A stretch of DNA of 60,603 nucleotides. Source: Candidatus Parcubacteria bacterium (GTDB lineage: Bacteria > Patescibacteriota > Minisyncoccia > Phycocordibacterales > UBA918). Under the pieces are notes generated by a model that did not search any database, had not been told where the DNA came from, and saw only the letters and a list, made by a program, of their open reading frames with translations. Location: the NCBI GenBank assembly GCA_021767645.1, contig JAASSY010000001.1, positions 1 through 60,603 of the forward strand. Reading direction: 5' to 3'. The translations under genes and the position numbers were made by a program. Below, piece after piece: positions 2,673 through 58,244 of this stretch. How positions within the stretch are numbered: the stretch's first letter is position 1; every line of letters begins with the position of its first letter.

Positions 2673-2693
2673 TCCCTAGGTCCGACCTAGGGA
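2673..2693. repeat. CCTAGG-type palindromic (REP-like) element, copy 1
   Basis: TCCCTAGG-tccga-CCTAGGGA. The same motif occurs at 3709-3730 and twice at 7677-7722. Confidence 0.7.
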
Positions 2694-2748
2694 GATGTTT
2701 GTGTACAAGGGTGATTGGCTCGCTCTTGTAGTACGGTACTATGAGGTT

Positions 2749-3135
2749 ATGACAACCGACCCGCAACACTTGCTCCCGGCCCACACTCCGTTTTATAAGA
2801 AACTCTTTTTTTCAAACCTGCTTTTGAGTATTTTGGTGGGAATCAATATTTTGTATGGATTAGTATTTGTGTATGGTTTTGAGAGTTTATCAATAGAAAA
2901 TGCCCTATATTTACTATTTCTTTCGAGCGGAGGTGGTACCCTAGCCATAATGTCAGGACTGTTTTTTAACTATCAACTTAATAACCTACTTTTAACTACT
3001 ATATATGCGTTATTCCTTATAATAGCTTTTGTAAATAATAAATATAATTACAGTGTCTCTATTTATTTAATGACTATTATATATCTTATGTTATCTATTG
3101 GCGGCATTACGCTAATAGCAATTATTGGTTACTGA
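2749..3135 (+). CDS. MTTDPQH-family small multi-TM membrane protein, paralog 1
   Basis: ATG at 2749 (gaggtt precedes it). Starts with the N-terminus MTTDPQHLLPAHTPFYK shared with three downstream ORFs, followed by an AT-rich hydrophobic body. The ORF-track start at 2695 lies in the conserved upstream DNA. Confidence 0.7.
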   Translation: MTTDPQHLLPAHTPFYKKLFFSNLLLSILVGINILYGLVFVYGFESLSIENALYLLFLSSGGGTLAIMSGLFFNYQLNNLLLTTIYALFLIIAFVNNKYNYSVSIYLMTIIYLMLSIGGITLIAIIGY

Positions 3136-3297
3136 TAATTTCCTAACAAAATATCATTCTAAATATCTAATTAAAATTCTGTTTTAGAAAGTAAAGTGTT
3201 TGTTATGCTGTGATTAATATGTGCATCATTAGCATACTTTGCCCGCAAAGCGGTCTATTACTGAATAGCCCCGAATATCTTGTCTCTATGAAAAGTT

Positions 3298-3693
3298 ATG
3301 ACAACCGACCCTCAACATCTCCTGCCGGCCTACACTCCGTTTTATAAGACGAGGAAGTTTTGGTTAATCTTGGCTTCTCTGTTTTTCTTAGTTAATATCC
3401 TCATTCTAATTTCTGCTCCAGGAGTTGATGGGAATACTATTTTTTTCTTAAATGAGTTTGCTTTTGCAGCTGGCTCGGGACTGTATGTTCTCTCGTTGGG
3501 TATTTTTAATTCACAATTATCTACAAGCTCAATGATCAGTCTCCTATATCTGATTATGGCTGTGTTTATGCTAAAGAAAGTTTGCAGTAGTAAAAAAATT
3601 CTTTGGTCAGCTTTATTATTTTTTCACATTTTCATCAGTTGTCTGATTCTCATTGGAATTTATTTATATTTACAAGGAACAGCACCTTTTTAG
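3298..3693 (+). CDS. MTTDPQH-family small multi-TM membrane protein, paralog 2
   Basis: 131 aa. MTTDPQHLLPAYTPFYKTRKFW followed by divergent hydrophobic segments. Confidence 0.7.
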   Translation: MTTDPQHLLPAYTPFYKTRKFWLILASLFFLVNILILISAPGVDGNTIFFLNEFAFAAGSGLYVLSLGIFNSQLSTSSMISLLYLIMAVFMLKKVCSSKKILWSALLFFHIFISCLILIGIYLYLQGTAPF

Positions 3694-3708
3694 AAAAAAT
3701 ATAAAGCA

Positions 3709-3730
3709 CCCCCAGGTCGGACCTAGGGGA
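3709..3730. repeat. CCTAGG-type palindromic element, degenerate copy, inverted loop
   Basis: CCCCCAGG-tcgga-CCTAGGGGA. Followed by ~55 nt that are conserved with the region upstream of paralog 1. Confidence 0.6.
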
Positions 3731-3785
3731 GAGGTTTGTGTACAAGGGTGACTGGCTCACTCACTTGGTGCGGTACTATTAATAT

Positions 3786-4166
3786 ATGACAACCGACCCT
3801 CAACACCCCCTTCCAGCCCACACTCCGTTTTATAAAACGAGGAGGTTTTTAAAATCTGTATTATTTCTCATTTTTATATTTTCTTTATTTGTCTTCTATT
3901 TTATTTTCTTGCCAAATATTAACTCTCCAGAAGACTTGATCATATATATTTCTGCGGCATTAGGTAGTTCAAGTTTGTACTTTTTACTAGGTATCTCACC
4001 TTACTACAGCTCTCTTTTAGTATCAGCTTTATATTTAGTTGGATTCGTTACAGCTAACCTATTGTTTTTTTATAAAAGACGACCTCCTCTATTTGTGTTA
4101 CTAATGATACTTTTCTTTTTTGGAATTGGTAACTTTATAAATATTATAATTGCAGGAATTTCTTAA
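3786..4166 (+). CDS. MTTDPQH-family small multi-TM membrane protein, paralog 3
   Basis: 126 aa. MTTDPQHPLPAHTPFYKTRRF followed by a divergent AT-rich hydrophobic body. The ATG is directly preceded by cggtactattaatat. Confidence 0.7.
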   Translation: MTTDPQHPLPAHTPFYKTRRFLKSVLFLIFIFSLFVFYFIFLPNINSPEDLIIYISAALGSSSLYFLLGISPYYSSLLVSALYLVGFVTANLLFFYKRRPPLFVLLMILFFFGIGNFINIIIAGIS

Positions 4167-4237
4167 TTAAAATAAAAAGGTTGTTTTAATTTATTTCATA
4201 TAATTTGCTCACCCACCTGATACGGTACTATTAATAT

Positions 4238-4624
4238 ATGACAACCGACCCTCAACATCTCCTGCCGGCCCACACACCGTTTTATAAAACACGGAAATTT
4301 TGGTTAACTATTCTATTAATAGCATTTACGGTAAATGTCTATCTCTATTTTGTATACATAAGTGGCTCATTACCTGATAATATTGAAGATTTTTACCACT
4401 TCATTAATTCTATTCTTGGTGGAACCTTATTCCTTTTACTTGGAAACAGTATTGCTGGAAAATTCGGTTATTATCTTGGAGGATTTGTATATATATTTTT
4501 ACTTTGTTTGCTCTTATACAAGAGTCTTAAATTAAAAAAAGTGAAAATGATTTATCCAATAATCACGCTCTCTTTCTTAATTTTAAATTTTTATACATAC
4601 TTTCTCTTTTCAGATTTTACTTGA
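4238..4624 (+). CDS. MTTDPQH-family small multi-TM membrane protein, paralog 4
   Basis: 128 aa. MTTDPQHLLPAHTPFYKTRKFW followed by a divergent body. The same cggtactattaatat box abuts the ATG. Confidence 0.7.
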   Translation: MTTDPQHLLPAHTPFYKTRKFWLTILLIAFTVNVYLYFVYISGSLPDNIEDFYHFINSILGGTLFLLLGNSIAGKFGYYLGGFVYIFLLCLLLYKSLKLKKVKMIYPIITLSFLILNFYTYFLFSDFT

Positions 4625-4644: not shown

Positions 4645-7047
4645 TTAGGCTGATGACAATATTATTTTAAGTTCTTTGAGCAGAGCTTGAATGTCATTTT
4701 TTTCATCCTTAGTAAAAGATTGACTGCTAATCATATCTTTTAGACGAGCCACTGCCTGTTCGAGATCACGCAGATTTTCTTCGGTTATATCCCTGGAAAC
4801 ACTGACGCCTGCCACGCGTTGTAACTGTCGCTGCTGCCACACATCACGAGGGTAGGCAGCTTGACTGGTTGACTCAGTCACCTGCCCTATCTCTTCCAGG
4901 TTTGGTTGCTCTGGCTGATTTGTAACTTCATCAGTATCAGTAGTAGTGCTCGTTTCAGCTAGTGTTTCCTCATCACTTTCTGGAGCTGCCGTCGTGTACC
5001 CTAGACCGTAGCGTGAGAAGTGGTCGGTTTCTATCCAAACCATCTCTTCTGCTGTGTCGACTGTTGACGAGACCATACTCCACGAACCAGTTTCCGGACT
5101 GAAGAACAAGCCGGTGAGAGTAGCTGGTGTGATGTCTAACTCTTCTAGTAATGCAGTATCATACGGCAGACCGAACAGGGTGTTGAACGTACCATTCTCT
5201 AAGTTAGTACTAATATCCCAGAACGTCGGCAGCACGTTCACTCCTTCTGGCGCTTGCCCAGACACAGGCTCGGTGTGTGGTTCGACTGTTATTTCTGCAC
5301 CCTCTGGCACCGGATTATCAAAGGAGAACGATAGCAGCCCGACAAACAAATCTTTAGTTTTCTCCCGTATATTTTTCCGACTAATTCCATCAATGCCCGC
5401 CCATTCGATAGGATTAGCAAAACGTGTCTGACCAGTCAGGTCTATAAAGGCCGGCCCTTGGGGACCATCGCCGCCAATTTGTATTGTATCTACTCCCCAG
5501 AGCCCTTGATAATCGTTAAGGATATTATATTCAGCCACTTTCATTTCATAGCTGACTAACTTAGTTCCATTTTTGGAGACAATTTCATTTTTTTGTAATG
5601 GTATGTTTTTTATTCCATTTCCCACGATAGAGTAATTTGCATGAGAACCTAATGCCACGTAACTCACCACACTATCACCGTCTGTCTCAACCTCCTCACT
5701 ACCCCACTGACGACGGACTGAGCCGTACTGTTTGACGTTGTACCACTCGGCTTGGCCATCATTAAGGTGGGCCGAGTATGCCACATACTCCGGCCTTTCG
5801 GTCGCCTTATCGAGAAAAACGAAAACCGACTCCCAGTCTCCTTCGTGATCATTAAAACCACCCTGCTCACCCCAATTGTTCATAGCGTAGAAGAACCAGT
5901 ACTGTAAGACGATAAACTCATGTTCCTCTCCTTCGTTGTCGACGTAGCTATCTTCCATTTTGTGCACATAGACAGTGGAAGTAGCAGCACCGCTGTCGAC
6001 CAGGCTTTGGTAGGTGGCGTAGGCGTTTGCTAAGTCGAAGGAGCCAGCGGTATCTCCATCACTAAACGCGAGATAGTGATCGGTAGTATCATTGGTTTCA
6101 ATATAGTCAGTAAGCGTCTCTACGGTGAGCTCGTCGGCGGTATAGAGCTGCGTGTCAGAACCGCTACCGTCCCACAGGGCACTAGCCTCAATAAACGGCT
6201 CGACGTTCATCGGGAAGTACTGCTCGTCTTCATGAAACTGCAGTGTCGGTGCGTACTGCAGCAAGAGTGGGTCGATCGGTTCTGGTTCTGGTTCAAACGG
6301 TGGAATGTCAGCTGTTTCGAGTGTAAAGGTAACACTACGCACAGCAGGGTCTTGGCCACACGCTGCAGCGTGAGCAATTGCTGGACGTAACCACTCTGGC
6401 CACCACGAGTGCGCACCATGGCTAACACACAGTACAACTTCTGTAGAAACCAGTGTATACGTACCAACCGGAATCGGTGCATACCGAGTACGACTATACG
6501 CTGGTTGGGAAAATTGACCGATGGCTGCAAACACAGTTTGCGCTTCAGGAGAGAGGTCACTTGGTGGCATAACCCCTTCTATCACCGCAACCACCTCATC
6601 GAGCACTGGGCCAAGTGGTTCCTGGTACCGTTGCCAAGCCAGGGCTTTGATTTCAGTAGCAGTTGGTGGAGCCATTGACTGCTCCGACAGTGCCACTTCT
6701 TCGTAGCCAGCTGGAGTGTGGCGGTAGAGGGTTGGTGTGTAGGTGGAGTCGTCAGCACCGAGGTTGAGTAGCGCAGTCGTCGTCCCGCGTATCCCCATAG
6801 TACCGTCAGGCTCGACCAAAGCGCCGTCGACGCGTACTACGGCAGGCACATCAGTACTAACACCAAATGGGTTGTTGCAGTCTTCAATCGCCACCGCTTC
6901 TCCGTCCAAATTAGTGATGGAGCCACACGCAGCCGCTTGAGACGGAGCAAATAAAAGAAAAAGCACCGCTAAAGCAGCGCTGCTACACCCCACCACCCCG
7001 TGGAATCGTTTACTTTTTGGTAACTGACTCGCTTTCGTATTTGGCAT
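4645..7047 (-). CDS. Secreted protein with Vps62/DUF946-like domain
   Basis: Signal-peptide-like N-terminus (SSAALAVLFLLFAPSQAAAC). The central region resembles the Vps62 family (LQFHEDEQYFPMNVEPFI, LQYWFFYAMNNWG..NDHEGDWESVFVFL, YSAHLNDG..ALGSHANY, GDGPQGP). The start may instead be the in-frame GTG at 6996, which would avoid the 38-nt overlap with 7010-7501. Confidence 0.8.
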   Translation of the reverse strand: MPNTKASQLPKSKRFHGVVGCSSAALAVLFLLFAPSQAAACGSITNLDGEAVAIEDCNNPFGVSTDVPAVVRVDGALVEPDGTMGIRGTTTALLNLGADDSTYTPTLYRHTPAGYEEVALSEQSMAPPTATEIKALAWQRYQEPLGPVLDEVVAVIEGVMPPSDLSPEAQTVFAAIGQFSQPAYSRTRYAPIPVGTYTLVSTEVVLCVSHGAHSWWPEWLRPAIAHAAACGQDPAVRSVTFTLETADIPPFEPEPEPIDPLLLQYAPTLQFHEDEQYFPMNVEPFIEASALWDGSGSDTQLYTADELTVETLTDYIETNDTTDHYLAFSDGDTAGSFDLANAYATYQSLVDSGAATSTVYVHKMEDSYVDNEGEEHEFIVLQYWFFYAMNNWGEQGGFNDHEGDWESVFVFLDKATERPEYVAYSAHLNDGQAEWYNVKQYGSVRRQWGSEEVETDGDSVVSYVALGSHANYSIVGNGIKNIPLQKNEIVSKNGTKLVSYEMKVAEYNILNDYQGLWGVDTIQIGGDGPQGPAFIDLTGQTRFANPIEWAGIDGISRKNIREKTKDLFVGLLSFSFDNPVPEGAEITVEPHTEPVSGQAPEGVNVLPTFWDISTNLENGTFNTLFGLPYDTALLEELDITPATLTGLFFSPETGSWSMVSSTVDTAEEMVWIETDHFSRYGLGYTTAAPESDEETLAETSTTTDTDEVTNQPEQPNLEEIGQVTESTSQAAYPRDVWQQRQLQRVAGVSVSRDITEENLRDLEQAVARLKDMISSQSFTKDEKNDIQALLKELKIILSSA

Positions 7048-7501
7048 ATTCCGCCTTGTGCCCTAGTAAGTTTGCTCCTATTTGTACCATACTTGCTAGC
7101 GAAGAAACAGCCAGCAGCAGTACCGGGAAGTAGGCGTACGGCGTCAGGAGGTAGAAGAACGCGACCGAAGCAGTAGCCCACATACCAAAGCACCACGGGC
7201 AACTAAGAAGCGTGACGATGGTCCGCCGTGGACCACGCTCGGGCTTGTGCAGCGTGACTTTGGTCTTGAGTACCTTGGCATCGTAAAACTGCTCGCGGAA
7301 CCACTTCGTGACGTGGTCGTACACAAAGAGACGCACGAGCCGCTGTGACGCGAGGGTGATGAGCACCACATCAAGCCAGGTGAGGTCAGCCGGTGCAAGT
7401 CGGGCTTCTGTATCGAGAATAAGCAACCCCATACCCACTAGCACGAGGAAAAACACGCTAAAGACAAAGTTCCAAAAGTACTGGTCAGTGATACGGATCA
7501 T
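7010..7501 (-). CDS. Integral membrane protein, DUF1360-like
   Basis: 163 aa with several TM segments and a CPWCFGMW motif, as in DUF1360 proteins. GGGGAG lies upstream of the ATG. Confidence 0.6.
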   Translation of the reverse strand: MIRITDQYFWNFVFSVFFLVLVGMGLLILDTEARLAPADLTWLDVVLITLASQRLVRLFVYDHVTKWFREQFYDAKVLKTKVTLHKPERGPRRTIVTLLSCPWCFGMWATASVAFFYLLTPYAYFPVLLLAVSSLASMVQIGANLLGHKAEYAKYESESVTKK

Positions 7502-7510
7502 ACTCCCCTA

Positions 7511-7615
7511 CTAGCTCGCTACCACACCTACCACCAAGACCAGCGTGAGCGTGACAGCAATCACTCCCACGAAGCCAAAGAAGAAACGGTAGAACGTGCG
7601 GTTTAAAAGCTTCAT
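7511..7615 (-). CDS. Small membrane peptide (34 aa), not in ORF track
   Basis: Translated by hand as MKLLNRTFYRFFFGFVGVIAVTLTLVLVVGVVAS. The stop lies 9 nt before the start of 7010-7501, so an operon arrangement is plausible. Confidence 0.4.
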   Translation of the reverse strand: MKLLNRTFYRFFFGFVGVIAVTLTLVLVVGVVAS

Positions 7616-7676
7616 AGTTCCTTTAGTATAGCAAACCAAACTAGAGACTGTGTGCCTAATAACCACACGTACATTT

Positions 7677-7722
7677 CCCTAGGTCCGCCCTAGGGATATT
7701 TTTCCCTAGGGCGGACCTAGGG
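7677..7722. repeat. Double CCTAGG-type palindromic element (two inverted copies)
   Basis: CCCTAGGTCCGCCCTAGGG (7677-7695) and its exact reverse complement (7704-7722), separated by atattttt. Confidence 0.8.
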
Positions 7723-7742
7723 GAAATAAATTGGTGGACAGC

Positions 7743-34149: not shown

Positions 34150-34362
34150 AGGCTCACATCTACCGAAACTGTCCTGAGGACCTTCACCACAGGCACTGGT
34201 ACTTCATAGTCGCTTTGCTCCTTGAATTACTGGCGCACAACTATGCCCTGCGGGCATTTGTTCATAGATCGATACCAGTTTGGTATATGTTCGCTTGGAA
34301 GGCTCACATCTACCGAAACTGTCCTGAGGACCTTCACAATATGCCCTGCGGGCATTTGTTCA
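34150..34362. repeat. Composite direct repeats (R1 38 nt x2, R2 23 nt x2) downstream of argS
   Basis: R1 aggctcacatctaccgaaactgtcctgaggaccttcac occurs at 34150-34187 and 34300-34337. R2 tatgccctgcgggcatttgttca occurs at 34242-34264 and 34340-34362. R2 contains the hairpin ATGCCC-tgc-GGGCAT. Confidence 0.85.
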
Positions 34363-34364
34363 GG

Positions 34365-36065
34365 TCACATCTGGTCTGGAGCTTCGATGCCAAGTACCCA
34401 CAAGCCGTTTTTGAGCGTCTGCCCCACAGCGGCTGCGAGTGTAGCTTTGTATGGTGCGTATTGATCGGACGGATCAGCGATCTTTTCCTGTGCGTACAGC
34501 GTGTTAAAGGCACTGGCAAGCTCAGTGAGAAAGGTAGCTACCTTATGTGGAGCTCGTTCCACGAGCGCGTCCGCTATCACTTCAGGGTAGCGGTACAACA
34601 GTCGCTCAACAGCATACGGCGCTTCGGGCACTGTCTCAGTACCTGACATAACACCAACTGCAGCCGCTTTTTCTAAGACTGAGTTAATACGGGCATGCGT
34701 GTACTGCAAGTACGGTCCAGACGCCCCTTCAAACGACAGAGCCTGCTCCTTATCAAACACTGTGTCTTGTAAAATACTGCCCTTGAGTGTGGTGTACTTA
34801 ATCGCTCCGATAGCTATCTGCTCAGCCAAAGCTCGATCAACCTGCCCCACTTCACCAGTTTGGGCAGTAGCCGCTATCCGGGTAGCAGCAGCGTCGGTAA
34901 TTTCAGCAATGAAATCATTGGCAGCTATGACGTCTCCGGTTCGCGAGGACATCTTACCGGTGCTCAAGCGCACCATACCGTGGCCAATGTGCTCTGTCTT
35001 GGCTGCCAACTCAGGATAAACAAAGCTCATTGCCTGAAGCAGCACTTTAAAGTACTCGTTGATTTCGTTGGCGGTCGAAACAACCGAATGGTCATACGCA
35101 CCCAGTGCGTCTTCCTTCATTTTTGCGAGCGCCAGCTCTTTCGCTTCGTAGGTAGGTAACCCTTCCGAATTGATAAACACCCGGGTATGCAGGCCGTACT
35201 CTTCACCCACGAAAACCTTAGCGCCGTCACTGTCGGTAAAAATAGCGTCATGCTGCAACACGAGCTCGCGCCCCTTCGGACCAGCTTCGCTTTCAAAGAA
35301 GTACGCGTCAAACTGGGTACCCAGCGTCTCGTAAATAGTTTCAAAGTACGCCAGCGACACTTCACGACCCTTGTCGTACAACGCATTAATCGTCTCATCG
35401 TCTCGTTCGTAGACGTGCTTGTTGATGGCTTTGATGGCCGCAACTGTCGAGGCCTCACCGGCTTTGTATGCGGTCGCACCATACGCGTAGGCTTGCCCTA
35501 AATCACCAGCCGAGATATCGGCTTTCTCACCAAGGCCAAGCTGCTGCACCCCCCATAATGTCATCGCGACGTGCATACCGACGTCGCCTTGATAATTCAC
35601 CTTTTTGGTGTCAGCACCGTTGGCAATAAATAATCGGGCCAGACTCTCACCCACTACGTTGGTAAACAAGTGGCCGATATGAAACTCTTTAAACGGGTTT
35701 GGGTCAGTGTACTCAACCAGTACCCGCTTACCAGCCCAGCTCTCGTTTGTACCCCATGAAGAACCTTGCTCACCTACGGCAGTAACTTGCGACACGAAAA
35801 AATCGCGGTGTAAGTGAACGTTAACAAAACCAGGGCCAGCTACTTCAACACGCGCCACAGCCGGGACAGCCGCTGTCACCAGTGGTGTCAGCTGCGCTGC
35901 CACCTCTCTTGGTGACTGACCGAGTTGTTTAGCCGCTGCCATAGCAGCATTGGTAGCGTAGTCGCCGTGAGTCAAATCTGTCGGGTGCTCCACAACAAAG
36001 GTAACGTCGGTAGCACCCAAGGTGCCTAACGCTTGCTGAATCGCAGTAGTAATCGTGTCTCGCAT
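34365..36065 (-). CDS. argS: Arginyl-tRNA synthetase
   Basis: 566 aa. EYTDPNPFKEFHIGHL (HIGH), MSSRTG (the KMSKS equivalent), and a DALR anticodon-binding C-terminus. Confidence 0.95.
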   Translation of the reverse strand: MRDTITTAIQQALGTLGATDVTFVVEHPTDLTHGDYATNAAMAAAKQLGQSPREVAAQLTPLVTAAVPAVARVEVAGPGFVNVHLHRDFFVSQVTAVGEQGSSWGTNESWAGKRVLVEYTDPNPFKEFHIGHLFTNVVGESLARLFIANGADTKKVNYQGDVGMHVAMTLWGVQQLGLGEKADISAGDLGQAYAYGATAYKAGEASTVAAIKAINKHVYERDDETINALYDKGREVSLAYFETIYETLGTQFDAYFFESEAGPKGRELVLQHDAIFTDSDGAKVFVGEEYGLHTRVFINSEGLPTYEAKELALAKMKEDALGAYDHSVVSTANEINEYFKVLLQAMSFVYPELAAKTEHIGHGMVRLSTGKMSSRTGDVIAANDFIAEITDAAATRIAATAQTGEVGQVDRALAEQIAIGAIKYTTLKGSILQDTVFDKEQALSFEGASGPYLQYTHARINSVLEKAAAVGVMSGTETVPEAPYAVERLLYRYPEVIADALVERAPHKVATFLTELASAFNTLYAQEKIADPSDQYAPYKATLAAAVGQTLKNGLWVLGIEAPDQM

Positions 36066-36133: not shown

Positions 36134-37246
36134 CTACCGTACTTCAGTCACCAGCTCGCCCACCGGTGCGGTACTATCAATCCAAAACACTTCGCGGCCT
36201 AACACTTGCCCGCGCTCGGTTTCTACCGAGCAGCGCCACTTACCATCTTCGTAGTTCCGCATGAGCGTATAACCACGGTACCCGTCGCCACGCCCACCCT
36301 GGATCGGGTACGCCAACTCAAAGCGCTCTTCCCAGTCACCCGTGGTTTCGTTTTTGTAGTACCAGCGGTGCACGATATCTGTATCGAGTCTGGTTGGAGC
36401 AAACACTTGGGCAAAACAAAACACGTTACCGCCCGACTCAGGATGGAACACTCGATCAGAATCCTTAAAGGGCTGCCACCACGCACCTGGCTCATAGCGT
36501 ACTTGGTAGTCACCATTTTCAAACCGTACCACCGAGTGATAAATACCAACGTCCTTCAGCGACAACGGGATTGGTGGAATGATATTCGCGAAGTAGAGGA
36601 AATTGAATCCAGCAAAAATAGCGCCGACCGAAAACACTACTGCTTTCATATGAAGCTCTAAAAAGCGCGGGATGATCCGGTATAGCAGCCGCACAAACCA
36701 GTACATAATAACTACCGCTAAAAGACCGCTGCCGATAAACACCCACGGCCCCATCCAACCAGTTACCACCGGAACGACGAGTACCACGTACGAGAAGAGT
36801 CCGATGAATAAAATAGTGATGTTGTAAATCAGGCGTGAAGAACGGTCTTTCACTAATTCGTTACCAAAAATGGCGCCAATGATAACCGCCAAAAACGGCC
36901 AACTAGCTGCCCACGCACCGGAGCGTCCGTAAAATATCAGCATCCCCGACAGCAAACCACCAAACGCGTACTGCATCACCAGCGGTGCGTACTGGCGTGC
37001 GTAGCGGTTGTACTGTTCGGGCAACTTTTCTGCTGCACCCGCGTAGAGAAATAAAATACTCCCCATCGCCAACACAACGTAAGTGGCTAAAATGACGTTA
37101 TCAAATACTTGATCAACTCGATTCAGTGTTAGGTTGTCGACCACAAACCCGAGGATAAACGCGATCGTCATCCAGTAGCGACGTACACCCGCAATGGTTT
37201 TTTGGGAAGGAGCGACTTTTTGCAACGCACTGTTCATAGTGGCCAT
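36134..37246 (-). CDS. Polytopic membrane protein with C-terminal DUF2914-like domain
   Basis: ~7 TM segments, then a soluble domain (HRWYYKNETTGDWEERF..GYRGYTL..GKWRCSVETERGQVLGREVFWI) typical of DUF2914. Confidence 0.6.
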   Translation of the reverse strand: MATMNSALQKVAPSQKTIAGVRRYWMTIAFILGFVVDNLTLNRVDQVFDNVILATYVVLAMGSILFLYAGAAEKLPEQYNRYARQYAPLVMQYAFGGLLSGMLIFYGRSGAWAASWPFLAVIIGAIFGNELVKDRSSRLIYNITILFIGLFSYVVLVVPVVTGWMGPWVFIGSGLLAVVIMYWFVRLLYRIIPRFLELHMKAVVFSVGAIFAGFNFLYFANIIPPIPLSLKDVGIYHSVVRFENGDYQVRYEPGAWWQPFKDSDRVFHPESGGNVFCFAQVFAPTRLDTDIVHRWYYKNETTGDWEERFELAYPIQGGRGDGYRGYTLMRNYEDGKWRCSVETERGQVLGREVFWIDSTAPVGELVTEVR

Positions 37247-58006: not shown

Positions 58007-58244
58007 TCACAAAGCCCTGGCTGTCACCGTGCAGTCTGGGCTTTTGTGGTGAAGGAGGGTTTTATTACAAAACAATTAAATACACACGTGACCTAAGGTC
58101 GTTCAGGCTATGGTCCAAAACCGTGGAAGACAGAAAACCCGTTATCAGGGCGTCTTCCACGTTGCATGGGGAAACTCATGTAGAGGCTTCGGCCTTCCTG
58201 GTAGCGGGCTTTGTGTATTTGCTCCTACCATAACGTAAAACACT

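Follow-up and report, generated by a model that had tools for sequence, protein, structure and literature searches.

Why should four adjacent genes begin with nearly the same codons and then diverge so completely? This question is raised by the Candidatus Parcubacteria bacterium assembly GCA_021767645.1, in which positions 1 to 60,603 of contig JAASSY010000001.1 (forward strand; hereafter the window) carry a tandem array of four small membrane-protein genes between positions 2,673 and 4,624. An earlier note, made from the letters alone, described a shared 5' module fused to divergent, AT-rich bodies and suggested a cassette or diversification locus, with immunity proteins, surface variants and 5' ends homogenised by gene conversion among the possibilities. 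Overall, the best explanation, to which we give a probability of about 0.6, is a local four-fold expansion of a membrane-protein family that is paired with a secreted protein resembling the NLP cytolysins, with gene conversion acting on the 5' ends and, more tentatively, a possible immunity-like role for the small proteins.

The four open reading frames (ORFs) lie on the plus strand at 2749-3135 (copy 1, 128 residues), 3298-3693 (copy 2, 131 residues), 3786-4166 (copy 3, 126 residues) and 4238-4624 (copy 4, 128 residues), and they share the N-terminus MTTDPQH(L/P)LPA(H/Y)TPFYK. The chance that any one of the AT-rich bodies would stay open is about 3e-4 to 1e-3, which is low enough for all four ORFs to be regarded as genes; copy 3 is absent as a gene call from the public contig annotation. 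The description of four same-strand membrane-protein ORFs with a common start and no recognised family is borne out by the ORFs themselves, by a hidden Markov model (HMM) of the family, which matches copies 1 to 4 with E values of 2.7e-26, 3.2e-30, 5.6e-30 and 1.8e-39, respectively, and by negative searches of curated databases. Copy 4, which adjoins the partner gene as single-copy orthologues do elsewhere, is the most canonical, with RKFW and LYKS..KKVKMIYP both kept. Copy 1 has the canonical N-terminal motif, with S in place of the near-invariant W22, and a degenerate YKTF...V.L.YP loop motif; copy 3 has L in place of W22 and, as in copy 1, has lost the YKTF..YP loop motif.

A word-indexed protein search, which found only the copies on the same contig, suggested that these genes were orphans. 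This was overturned when 1.84 billion representatives were searched in full with an HMMER profile, which returned 29 further proteins of 78-286 residues (27 of them 116-154), with matches that run nearly all from end to end and 32 proteins in total at E<=1e-3. Repeating the word-indexed search with the family alignment gave few proteins, and a search with a 16-sequence subset of the alignment gave five metagenome loci and no member on a viral contig. The best-conserved part of the family is its N-terminal motif, M-x-TDPQHLL-x-AH-x-P[FW]Y-[KR]-x-R-x-FW, in which Y16 and F21 are invariant in the family alignment and W22 is present in at least 90% of members. Further features are a glycine-rich helix, a loop of the form Y...L-x-YKTF-xx-K-x-V-x-L-x-YP and the last helix. 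The motif belongs to a family spread over many Patescibacteria genomes, and the idea of a module fused idiosyncratically to the four bodies is not supported; ordinary purifying selection accounts for most of the amino-acid conservation of the motif. In three loci (L091, L093 and L097; L numbers designate comparison loci) the TDPQH half is missing and (Y)xRKFW is kept; the L003 member also lacks the TDPQH part. Hydrophobic segments are present in all members.

No family match for the small proteins was found in Pfam-A, NCBIfam, PADLOC, PHROGs or PDB sequences when 31 members were scanned, the only matches being stray ones to single members (YlaH, E=0.0015; Tet(C), 0.0076; XrtY_assoc_Wzy, NF046084, 0.035). 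AlphaFold2 models copy 4 as a helical bundle with helices at 19-41, 49-59, 63-98 and 105-127 (predicted local distance difference test, pLDDT, 93.2; predicted template modelling score, pTM, 0.82), and Foldseek found no solved relative of this model (best E=4.5), so that none of these resources places the proteins in a well-characterised family. The flanks of helix 1 and the 95-104 loop are rich in basic residues and the 42-54 loop is acidic; by the positive-inside rule, this charge pattern suggests that the N-terminus is probably cytoplasmic and juxtamembrane. The four tandem genes are paralogues, and the undescribed family to which they belong consists of small helical membrane proteins about 115-130 residues long. 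Two adjacent family genes in L082 (67-453 and 470-832) represent two subtypes, marked by YKTF..YP and YFSFFRK.INFY, and the latter also occurs in P0020, P0022, P0025 and both L101 copies; two recognisable subtypes point to at least two old lineages in the family.

Tandem genes whose products share an N-terminus and vary in the rest also resemble some precursor families of ribosomally synthesised and post-translationally modified peptides (RiPPs), in which a conserved leader precedes hypervariable cores. However, the bodies here are 110-residue helical membrane bundles in a high-confidence model, the motif adjoins a transmembrane helix and no modification or export enzymes are encoded nearby, and we regard the probability of RiPP-like precursors as negligible.

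At the DNA level, the shared start is confined to a short module. With up to one mismatch allowed, exactly four occurrences of each of the 20-mers ATGACAACCGACCCTCAACA and GCCCACACTCCGTTTTATAA are found in the 60.6-kb window, and none in shuffled sequences. Ungapped pairwise nucleotide identity is 0.86-0.94 over +1 to +51 and falls to 0.31-0.37 by +73 to +150, that is, to the random level beyond the module, and uniform similarity along the genes, as expected of simple recent duplicates, is not seen. The 5' modules, which the earlier note called nearly identical, are indeed of high identity; however, they are only similar, with differences that are mostly synonymous. The collapse placed near codon 18 is likewise right for copy 1, whereas in copies 2-4 an identity of 0.57-0.76 extends to about codon 24.

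These synonymous sites carry the main argument. Among identical residues, the fraction encoded by the same codon is 0.72 in the module and 0.39 in the bodies, the latter being the value expected by chance from genome codon usage (0.39). One codon is used in all four copies at 9 of the 15 informative module positions, against 1.5 expected (P=4e-7), and these identities include the four-fold degenerate codons ACA, ACC, GCC and CCG. Other genomes spell the same motif with other synonymous codons, which argues against a universal nucleotide constraint. Conservation also extends into non-coding DNA as a mosaic: copies 1 and 3 share upstream sequence (91% over 45 nt, 2678-2721 versus 3714-3758, with a CCCTAGG hairpin included, where about 75 nt had been claimed), copies 3 and 4 share the stretch from -30 to -1, including 15 exact nucleotides (cggtactattaatat) directly before the ATG, and copies 2 and 4 share the coding module, while the DNA upstream of copy 2 is unrelated to that of the other three. 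The four bodies are not each other's best matches. Because synonymous and upstream non-coding sites are conserved and the bodies are saturated, the simplest reading, which the codon statistics support, is that gene conversion limited to the 5' end homogenises the module and promoter region within a locus, as had been proposed among other options. Conversion would run only through the stretch that is still similar, seeded by the strongly selected motif.

An independent locus, L101, behaves in the same way. Between its two intact copies, identity is 0.83-0.97 over -30 to +90 and drops to 0.27-0.33 beyond that. In addition, positions 4375-4752 of L101 hold the decayed promoter and first ~27 codons of a small gene (the start codon is now ACG instead of ATG, and the frame contains a stop), joined directly to a 77-residue duplicate of the C-terminal end of the Vps62-like partner gene on the opposite strand. 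This remnant is the footprint of a duplication followed by a deletion at the module/body boundary, and its fusion indicates that rearrangement breakpoints fall at that boundary. No such partner-gene fragments were found in the spacers of the window array.

The sequences before the genes suggest how the small genes may be expressed. A -10-like TACTAT box on the plus strand ends 6 nt before the ATG of copy 1 (2737-2742), copy 3 (3774-3779) and copy 4 (4226-4231), whereas the corresponding hexamer of copy 2, TATGAA, is without the final T of TAnnAT. Across five genomes, seven family genes have a TAnnAT-type hexamer whose end lies 5-8 nt upstream of the ATG. We infer from these boxes that the small genes may have their own promoters and leaderless or very-short-leader mRNAs. 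The absence of a Shine-Dalgarno sequence was considered as a trait of the family and rejected, as most window genes have none: of the 39 gene starts examined in the window, only about 7 have a Shine-Dalgarno-like motif. In several window genes a TAnnnT box precedes the start codon by 12-15 nt; this suggests that leaderless or short-leader mRNAs are widespread in this genome.

Two palindromes also lie upstream. The sequence TTGTGTACAA at 2699-2708 (plus strand), 28 nt upstream of the -10-like box of copy 1, recurs as an identical 10-mer at 3736-3745 (plus strand) upstream of copy 3, and similar TTGTTcatAAC(AA) motifs stand 25 nt before the -10-like box in L082, L083, L084 and L055; it is a possible operator or promoter element. 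The CCCTAGG hairpin is found at 2672-2694, upstream of copy 1, where it is terminator-like on the plus strand, and at 3709-3729, between copies 2 and 3. It was considered as an array-specific element or the border of a mobile unit, and this was rejected: the palindrome CCCTAGG-N5-CCTAGGG is generic in intergenic DNA, is doubled head-to-head at 7676-7725 and also occurs in several related Patescibacteria genomes (L015, L033, L038 and L050), and it looks like a repetitive extragenic palindromic (REP) or terminator-like repeat family. The upstream sharing noted earlier between copies 1 and 3 and between copies 3 and 4 is therefore real, whereas its hairpin is not peculiar to the array.

Could selection alone account for the module? 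The four genes would then be old paralogues without conversion, in which purifying selection acts on the N-terminal peptide, perhaps together with constraints on initiation from leaderless mRNA. The amino-acid motif is conserved throughout the family in many genomes, the module differences are mostly synonymous, and with -10-like boxes adjoining the ATG the first codons would form the ribosome-binding end of the mRNA; selection on this end is a possible contributor. However, selection on the peptide does not account for four-fold degenerate sites that are identical in all four copies, for the different codons that encode the same residues in other genomes, for the mosaic sharing of non-coding upstream stretches or for the equally sharp boundary in L101. 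We consider this explanation, as a replacement for conversion, improbable.

The same direct repeat of ~50-110 nt at the 5' end of each tandem gene might also mark programmed antigenic or phase variation, with one expression site, silent copies and site-specific recombination at the 5' module, as in Mycoplasma vsa or a shufflon. However, the copies are all complete, each with an ATG and a -10-like box (imperfect in copy 2), they lie in a single orientation without inverted recombination sites, and no recombinase or invertase domain was found in the genes neighbouring the array (within about 10 kb). In addition, the repeats differ by 6-14%, and a single copy is the usual state elsewhere. Programmed cassettes are therefore very improbable, and the suggestion of a cassette or diversification locus of this kind is not supported. 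Integron cassettes were also considered and rejected: there is no integrase, the shared repeat is 5' and coding, and the sole palindrome is the generic CCCTAGG (attC covariance models were not run). Compared with Mycoplasma vsp/vlp loci or the orphan-immunity arrays of polymorphic toxin loci, the array is similar in its tandem same-strand paralogues, in a copy number that varies between genomes and in a homogenised promoter and 5' coding region ahead of a diverged remainder. It differs in having no signal-peptide or lipoprotein module, no intragenic repeats and no dedicated recombinase, and in that its conserved part is a probably cytoplasmic juxtamembrane motif; in addition, these genes are convergent with the presumed toxin gene and not downstream of it.

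The bodies differ from the module in composition as well as in sequence. The reported switch from about half G+C to AT-rich DNA is confirmed by calculation: the module has a G+C content of 0.51-0.55 against 0.27-0.33 for the bodies, and G+C at third codon positions (GC3) is 0.23-0.31 in the bodies versus 0.36-0.64 in 17 other window genes. As the earlier note also argued, this is no general effect of encoding a membrane protein, since the DUF1360 gene and a 370-residue channel-like gene (36134-37246) have GC3 values of 0.64 and 0.58. The contrast recurs in other genomes, with family-gene GC3 of 0.20-0.34 against 0.34-0.70 in neighbours (window, L055, L084 and L087) and of 0.32 against 0.40 in L097; in the AT-rich genome L088 the family gene and its neighbours show no contrast. 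The partner gene retains host-like composition where the family gene is AT-rich. Body identity between paralogues is only about 20-30%. Such divergence, together with a GC3 contrast that runs through the family, suggests that AT-richness probably results from weak constraint and AT-biased mutation, which is common in bacteria, rather than from recent import. As a pattern, the helical bodies evolve fast, are saturated at synonymous sites and have an AT-rich composition.

The alternative is that the bodies are foreign AT-rich cassettes, imported repeatedly with the 5' module and the 3' end of the partner gene as homology arms, so that the array would be a set of acquired specificities. In line with this, the bodies of copies 1-4 are no closer to one another than to members from other genomes, their composition is atypical, the L101 remnant breaks exactly at the module/body boundary and is fused to the partner 3' end, and the pair stands at differing genomic sites with transposases adjoining in L089 and L097. 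However, single-copy orthologues are AT-rich too, beside a host-like partner gene, and AT-richness is therefore a property of the family in several genomes and not the mark of a foreign cassette at this locus. Furthermore, the best body matches are weak (<=53 bits) and do not identify a donor, no family member turned up on viral contigs and the window spacers hold no partner-gene fragments. Repeated import thus has a low probability.

The gene at 4645-7047 on the minus strand encodes a secreted protein of 800 residues and ends 20 nt from the stop of copy 4. The earlier note mentioned this convergent Vps62-like gene only in passing, and it proves to be the invariant partner of the family. In all 11 inspected Patescibacteria loci, a small gene converges on a homologue of the 800-residue protein, with stops -41 to +52 bp apart. 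One small gene each is found in L083, L084-86, L087, L088, L089/90, L091/92, L093/94 and L095/96, a 153-residue small protein with FYETRWFW in the Jacksonbacteria-like L097, and two intact small-gene copies in L101. Copy number varies between related genomes, as the earlier note had suggested looking for: most loci have one small gene, L082 and L101 have two and the window has four. The other neighbours differ from locus to locus (SecA, DHFR/rplK, TatD, GlmS or DUF1360/rplJ), transposases stand beside the pair in L089/90 and L097, and an actinobacterial homologue of the large protein is without such a small partner gene. Strict pairing amid differing neighbours indicates that the small gene and the large gene form a conserved two-gene module that moves as a unit between neighbourhoods.

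The window itself appears to have received this module by insertion. In L002 the DUF1360 gene lies directly upstream of rplJ, as read directly, and many other relatives have the same arrangement by coordinates; in the window, about 4.5 kb separate the DUF1360 gene (7010-7501) from rplJ (1999-2487) and are filled by the four small genes and the 4645-7047 gene. From the relatives in which DUF1360 stands directly beside rplJ, this stretch is an insertion. The window is part of a Paceibacteria/Kaiserbacteria-like metagenome scaffold; the best matches of its L10 protein, in metagenome-assembled genomes of Paceibacteria, Kaiserbacteria and other Patescibacteria, reach no more than 81% identity. L089/90 has the pair at the same insertion site with one small gene, and an IS200-like Y1 transposase gene (PF01797, 31 bits; 6880-7545) stands between that small gene and rplJ. 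In L003, the gene for a diverged 106-residue membrane protein, which converges on a homologue of the large protein as in the other loci, adjoins rplJ, as in the window. The neighbours of the pair in L097 (818-8010) are a gene of the PT-TG polymorphic-toxin type (with two small genes downstream of it), a DDE transposase gene and a MvaI/BcnI restriction-modification pair, a neighbourhood of the conflict-system type. The longest ORF of the partner overlaps the 3' end of the DUF1360 gene by 38 nt (7010-7047), with a similar 11-nt overlap in L089/90, and the true start may be further downstream.

What kind of protein is the partner? An N-terminal signal-like hydrophobic segment is followed by a central Vps62/NLP-like domain, which carries the invariant HEGDWE motif, and by a C-terminal helical region. 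More than 200 homologues were found, nearly all on Patescibacteria-type contigs, many of them with a precomputed Vps62 (PF06101) match, and the invariant residues include H401, E402, D404 and E406 (NDHEGDWE), H427 and GSH469. The top Foldseek match in the PDB for its AlphaFold2 model (pLDDT 82) is the NLP cytolysin MpNEP2 (3st1; E=2.1e-4, probability 1.00, target-normalised template modelling (TM) score 0.47 over 258 columns). A profile-to-PDB comparison aligns HEGDWEsVfVFL..SaH of the partner with the NLP hallmark HRHDWEGAVVFL..SAH, although weakly (E=0.44); in this match H401, E402, D404 and E406 align with HRHDWE of MpNEP2, a motif that is similar and not identical. Against the Pfam NPP1 model (PF05630, gathering threshold 21 bits), the window protein and its L088 homologue score 10.1 and 15.2 bits, both below the threshold; against Vps62 (PF06101, 22.1 bits), the window protein scores 17.3 bits, below the threshold, and the L088 homologue 23.2 bits, above it. 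Compared with the NPP1 and Vps62/DUF946 families, the partner is similar in an HxxDWE-type motif followed by VFL...SAH that aligns with the NLP heptapeptide region, in its best structural match and in the PF06101 matches of many homologues; it is unlike them in its 800 residues with extra N- and C-terminal domains and in HEGDWE instead of GHRHDWE, and NLPs are not known to have a linked membrane partner. The partner can be described as NLP/Vps62-like by a moderate, convergent resemblance in sequence and predicted structure, and not by membership. Characterised NLPs act on plant sphingolipids, the glycosylinositol phosphorylceramides (GIPC).

The arrangement recalls the immunity genes of colicins. 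The immunity proteins of pore-forming colicins are small integral membrane proteins with three or four helices. Immunity genes of ionophoric colicins lie on the strand opposite to the toxin gene and have their own promoter (PMC9517006). Like Cai, Cei and Iia, the protein studied here is modelled as a small multi-helix membrane protein (pLDDT 93), its gene lies opposite to and beside that of a secreted protein with a predicted membrane-targeting domain, and its own promoter is suggested by the -10-like boxes. However, the small proteins have no sequence or fold match in Pfam, NCBIfam, PDB or Foldseek searches, the partner is NLP/Vps62-like and has no colicin helical pore domain, and the array is without a lysis gene or plasmid context in a single-membrane Patescibacteria cell. 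By analogy, the small proteins may protect the membrane of the producer from the NLP-like protein or otherwise specifically engage it, a tentative proposal that we place somewhat short of an even chance; immunity, which was among the roles listed earlier, stands as the best functional guess on this analogy. In this view, the producer would use a small protein to shield its membrane against the membrane-targeting NLP-like protein. Each copy, read from the opposite strand, would have its own promoter, like the immunity genes of pore-forming colicins, and the additional divergent copies would widen the protection to cover NLP-like variants made by neighbouring cells. Arrays of extra immunity genes are typical of toxin-immunity conflicts.

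The small protein could instead be a structural or regulatory partner, such as an anchor or receptor for the C-terminal helical region of the large protein, an assembly factor or a sensor that signals inward. Strict linkage, close to 1:1 in most genomes, would fit such a role, the conserved, probably cytoplasmic motif suggests a common intracellular contact, and NLPs are not generally known to need immunity proteins. However, the genes are convergent and apparently separately promoted rather than operonic, two to four divergent copies per large gene fit an immunity repertoire better than a stoichiometric partner, and the N-terminal motif is missing from some members. We regard a structural or regulatory role as somewhat less probable than immunity. 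Less probable still, when taken as a whole, is the furthest-reaching extension of the immunity proposal: a Patescibacteria-specific cytolysin-immunity system, in which the large protein would be secreted by episymbionts to permeabilise host or competitor membranes and the arrays would serve as repertoires of immunity genes, with the 5' module as the anchor for the recombination that diversifies them.

Several points weigh against an expanded, 5'-converted family with an immunity-like role. The NLP likeness of the partner is moderate (TM 0.47, sequence E values that are not significant and an NPP1 score below the Pfam cut-off), and to our knowledge no characterised NLP requires an immunity protein. 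The case for immunity consists only of adjacency, membrane location and copy-number expansion, and the TDPQH part of the motif, absent from some members, is dispensable for the family. Selection on the nucleotide sequence at the start of a leaderless mRNA, and not conversion, could account for part of the synonymous conservation, and four copies offer few independent contrasts. Drift towards AT is a probable and not a proven explanation of the bodies, with selection for AT-rich sequence or repeated import as alternatives.

Three further features of the window lie outside the locus. An Rfam LOOT RNA match (RF03000) occurs at 58090-58196 on the plus strand (55.1 bits, against a gathering threshold of 46.4). 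A 49-nt direct repeat, 92% identical and with a spacing of 150 nt, occupies 34150-34198 and 34300-34348, just upstream of or overlapping the end of the gene for a 566-residue protein (34365-36065). Finally, the L7/L12 gene at 1342-1884 on the minus strand encodes 180 residues with a long acidic N-terminal extension rich in Glu, Ala and Thr, which is unusual for L7/L12.

A literature search on Vps62 and NLP proteins in Patescibacteria returned nothing relevant, and no description of the small family or of its pairing with an NLP/Vps62-like protein was found in the searchable literature. Both the family and the pairing are unannotated in Patescibacteria, whereas tandem paralogues with partial concerted evolution are a known phenomenon. 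Partial concerted evolution of this kind, with the promoter and first 17-30 codons homogenised and the bodies saturated, is seen here in two genomes and could be used for studying recombination in reduced genomes. Patescibacteria are tiny episymbionts, most of which have not been cultured, and little is known of the ways in which they act on host membranes. The conserved, movable pair is a concrete effector candidate for this lifestyle, with a possible partner for self-protection. If the small proteins are anchors rather than immunity factors, the module would still be a new surface-protein system.

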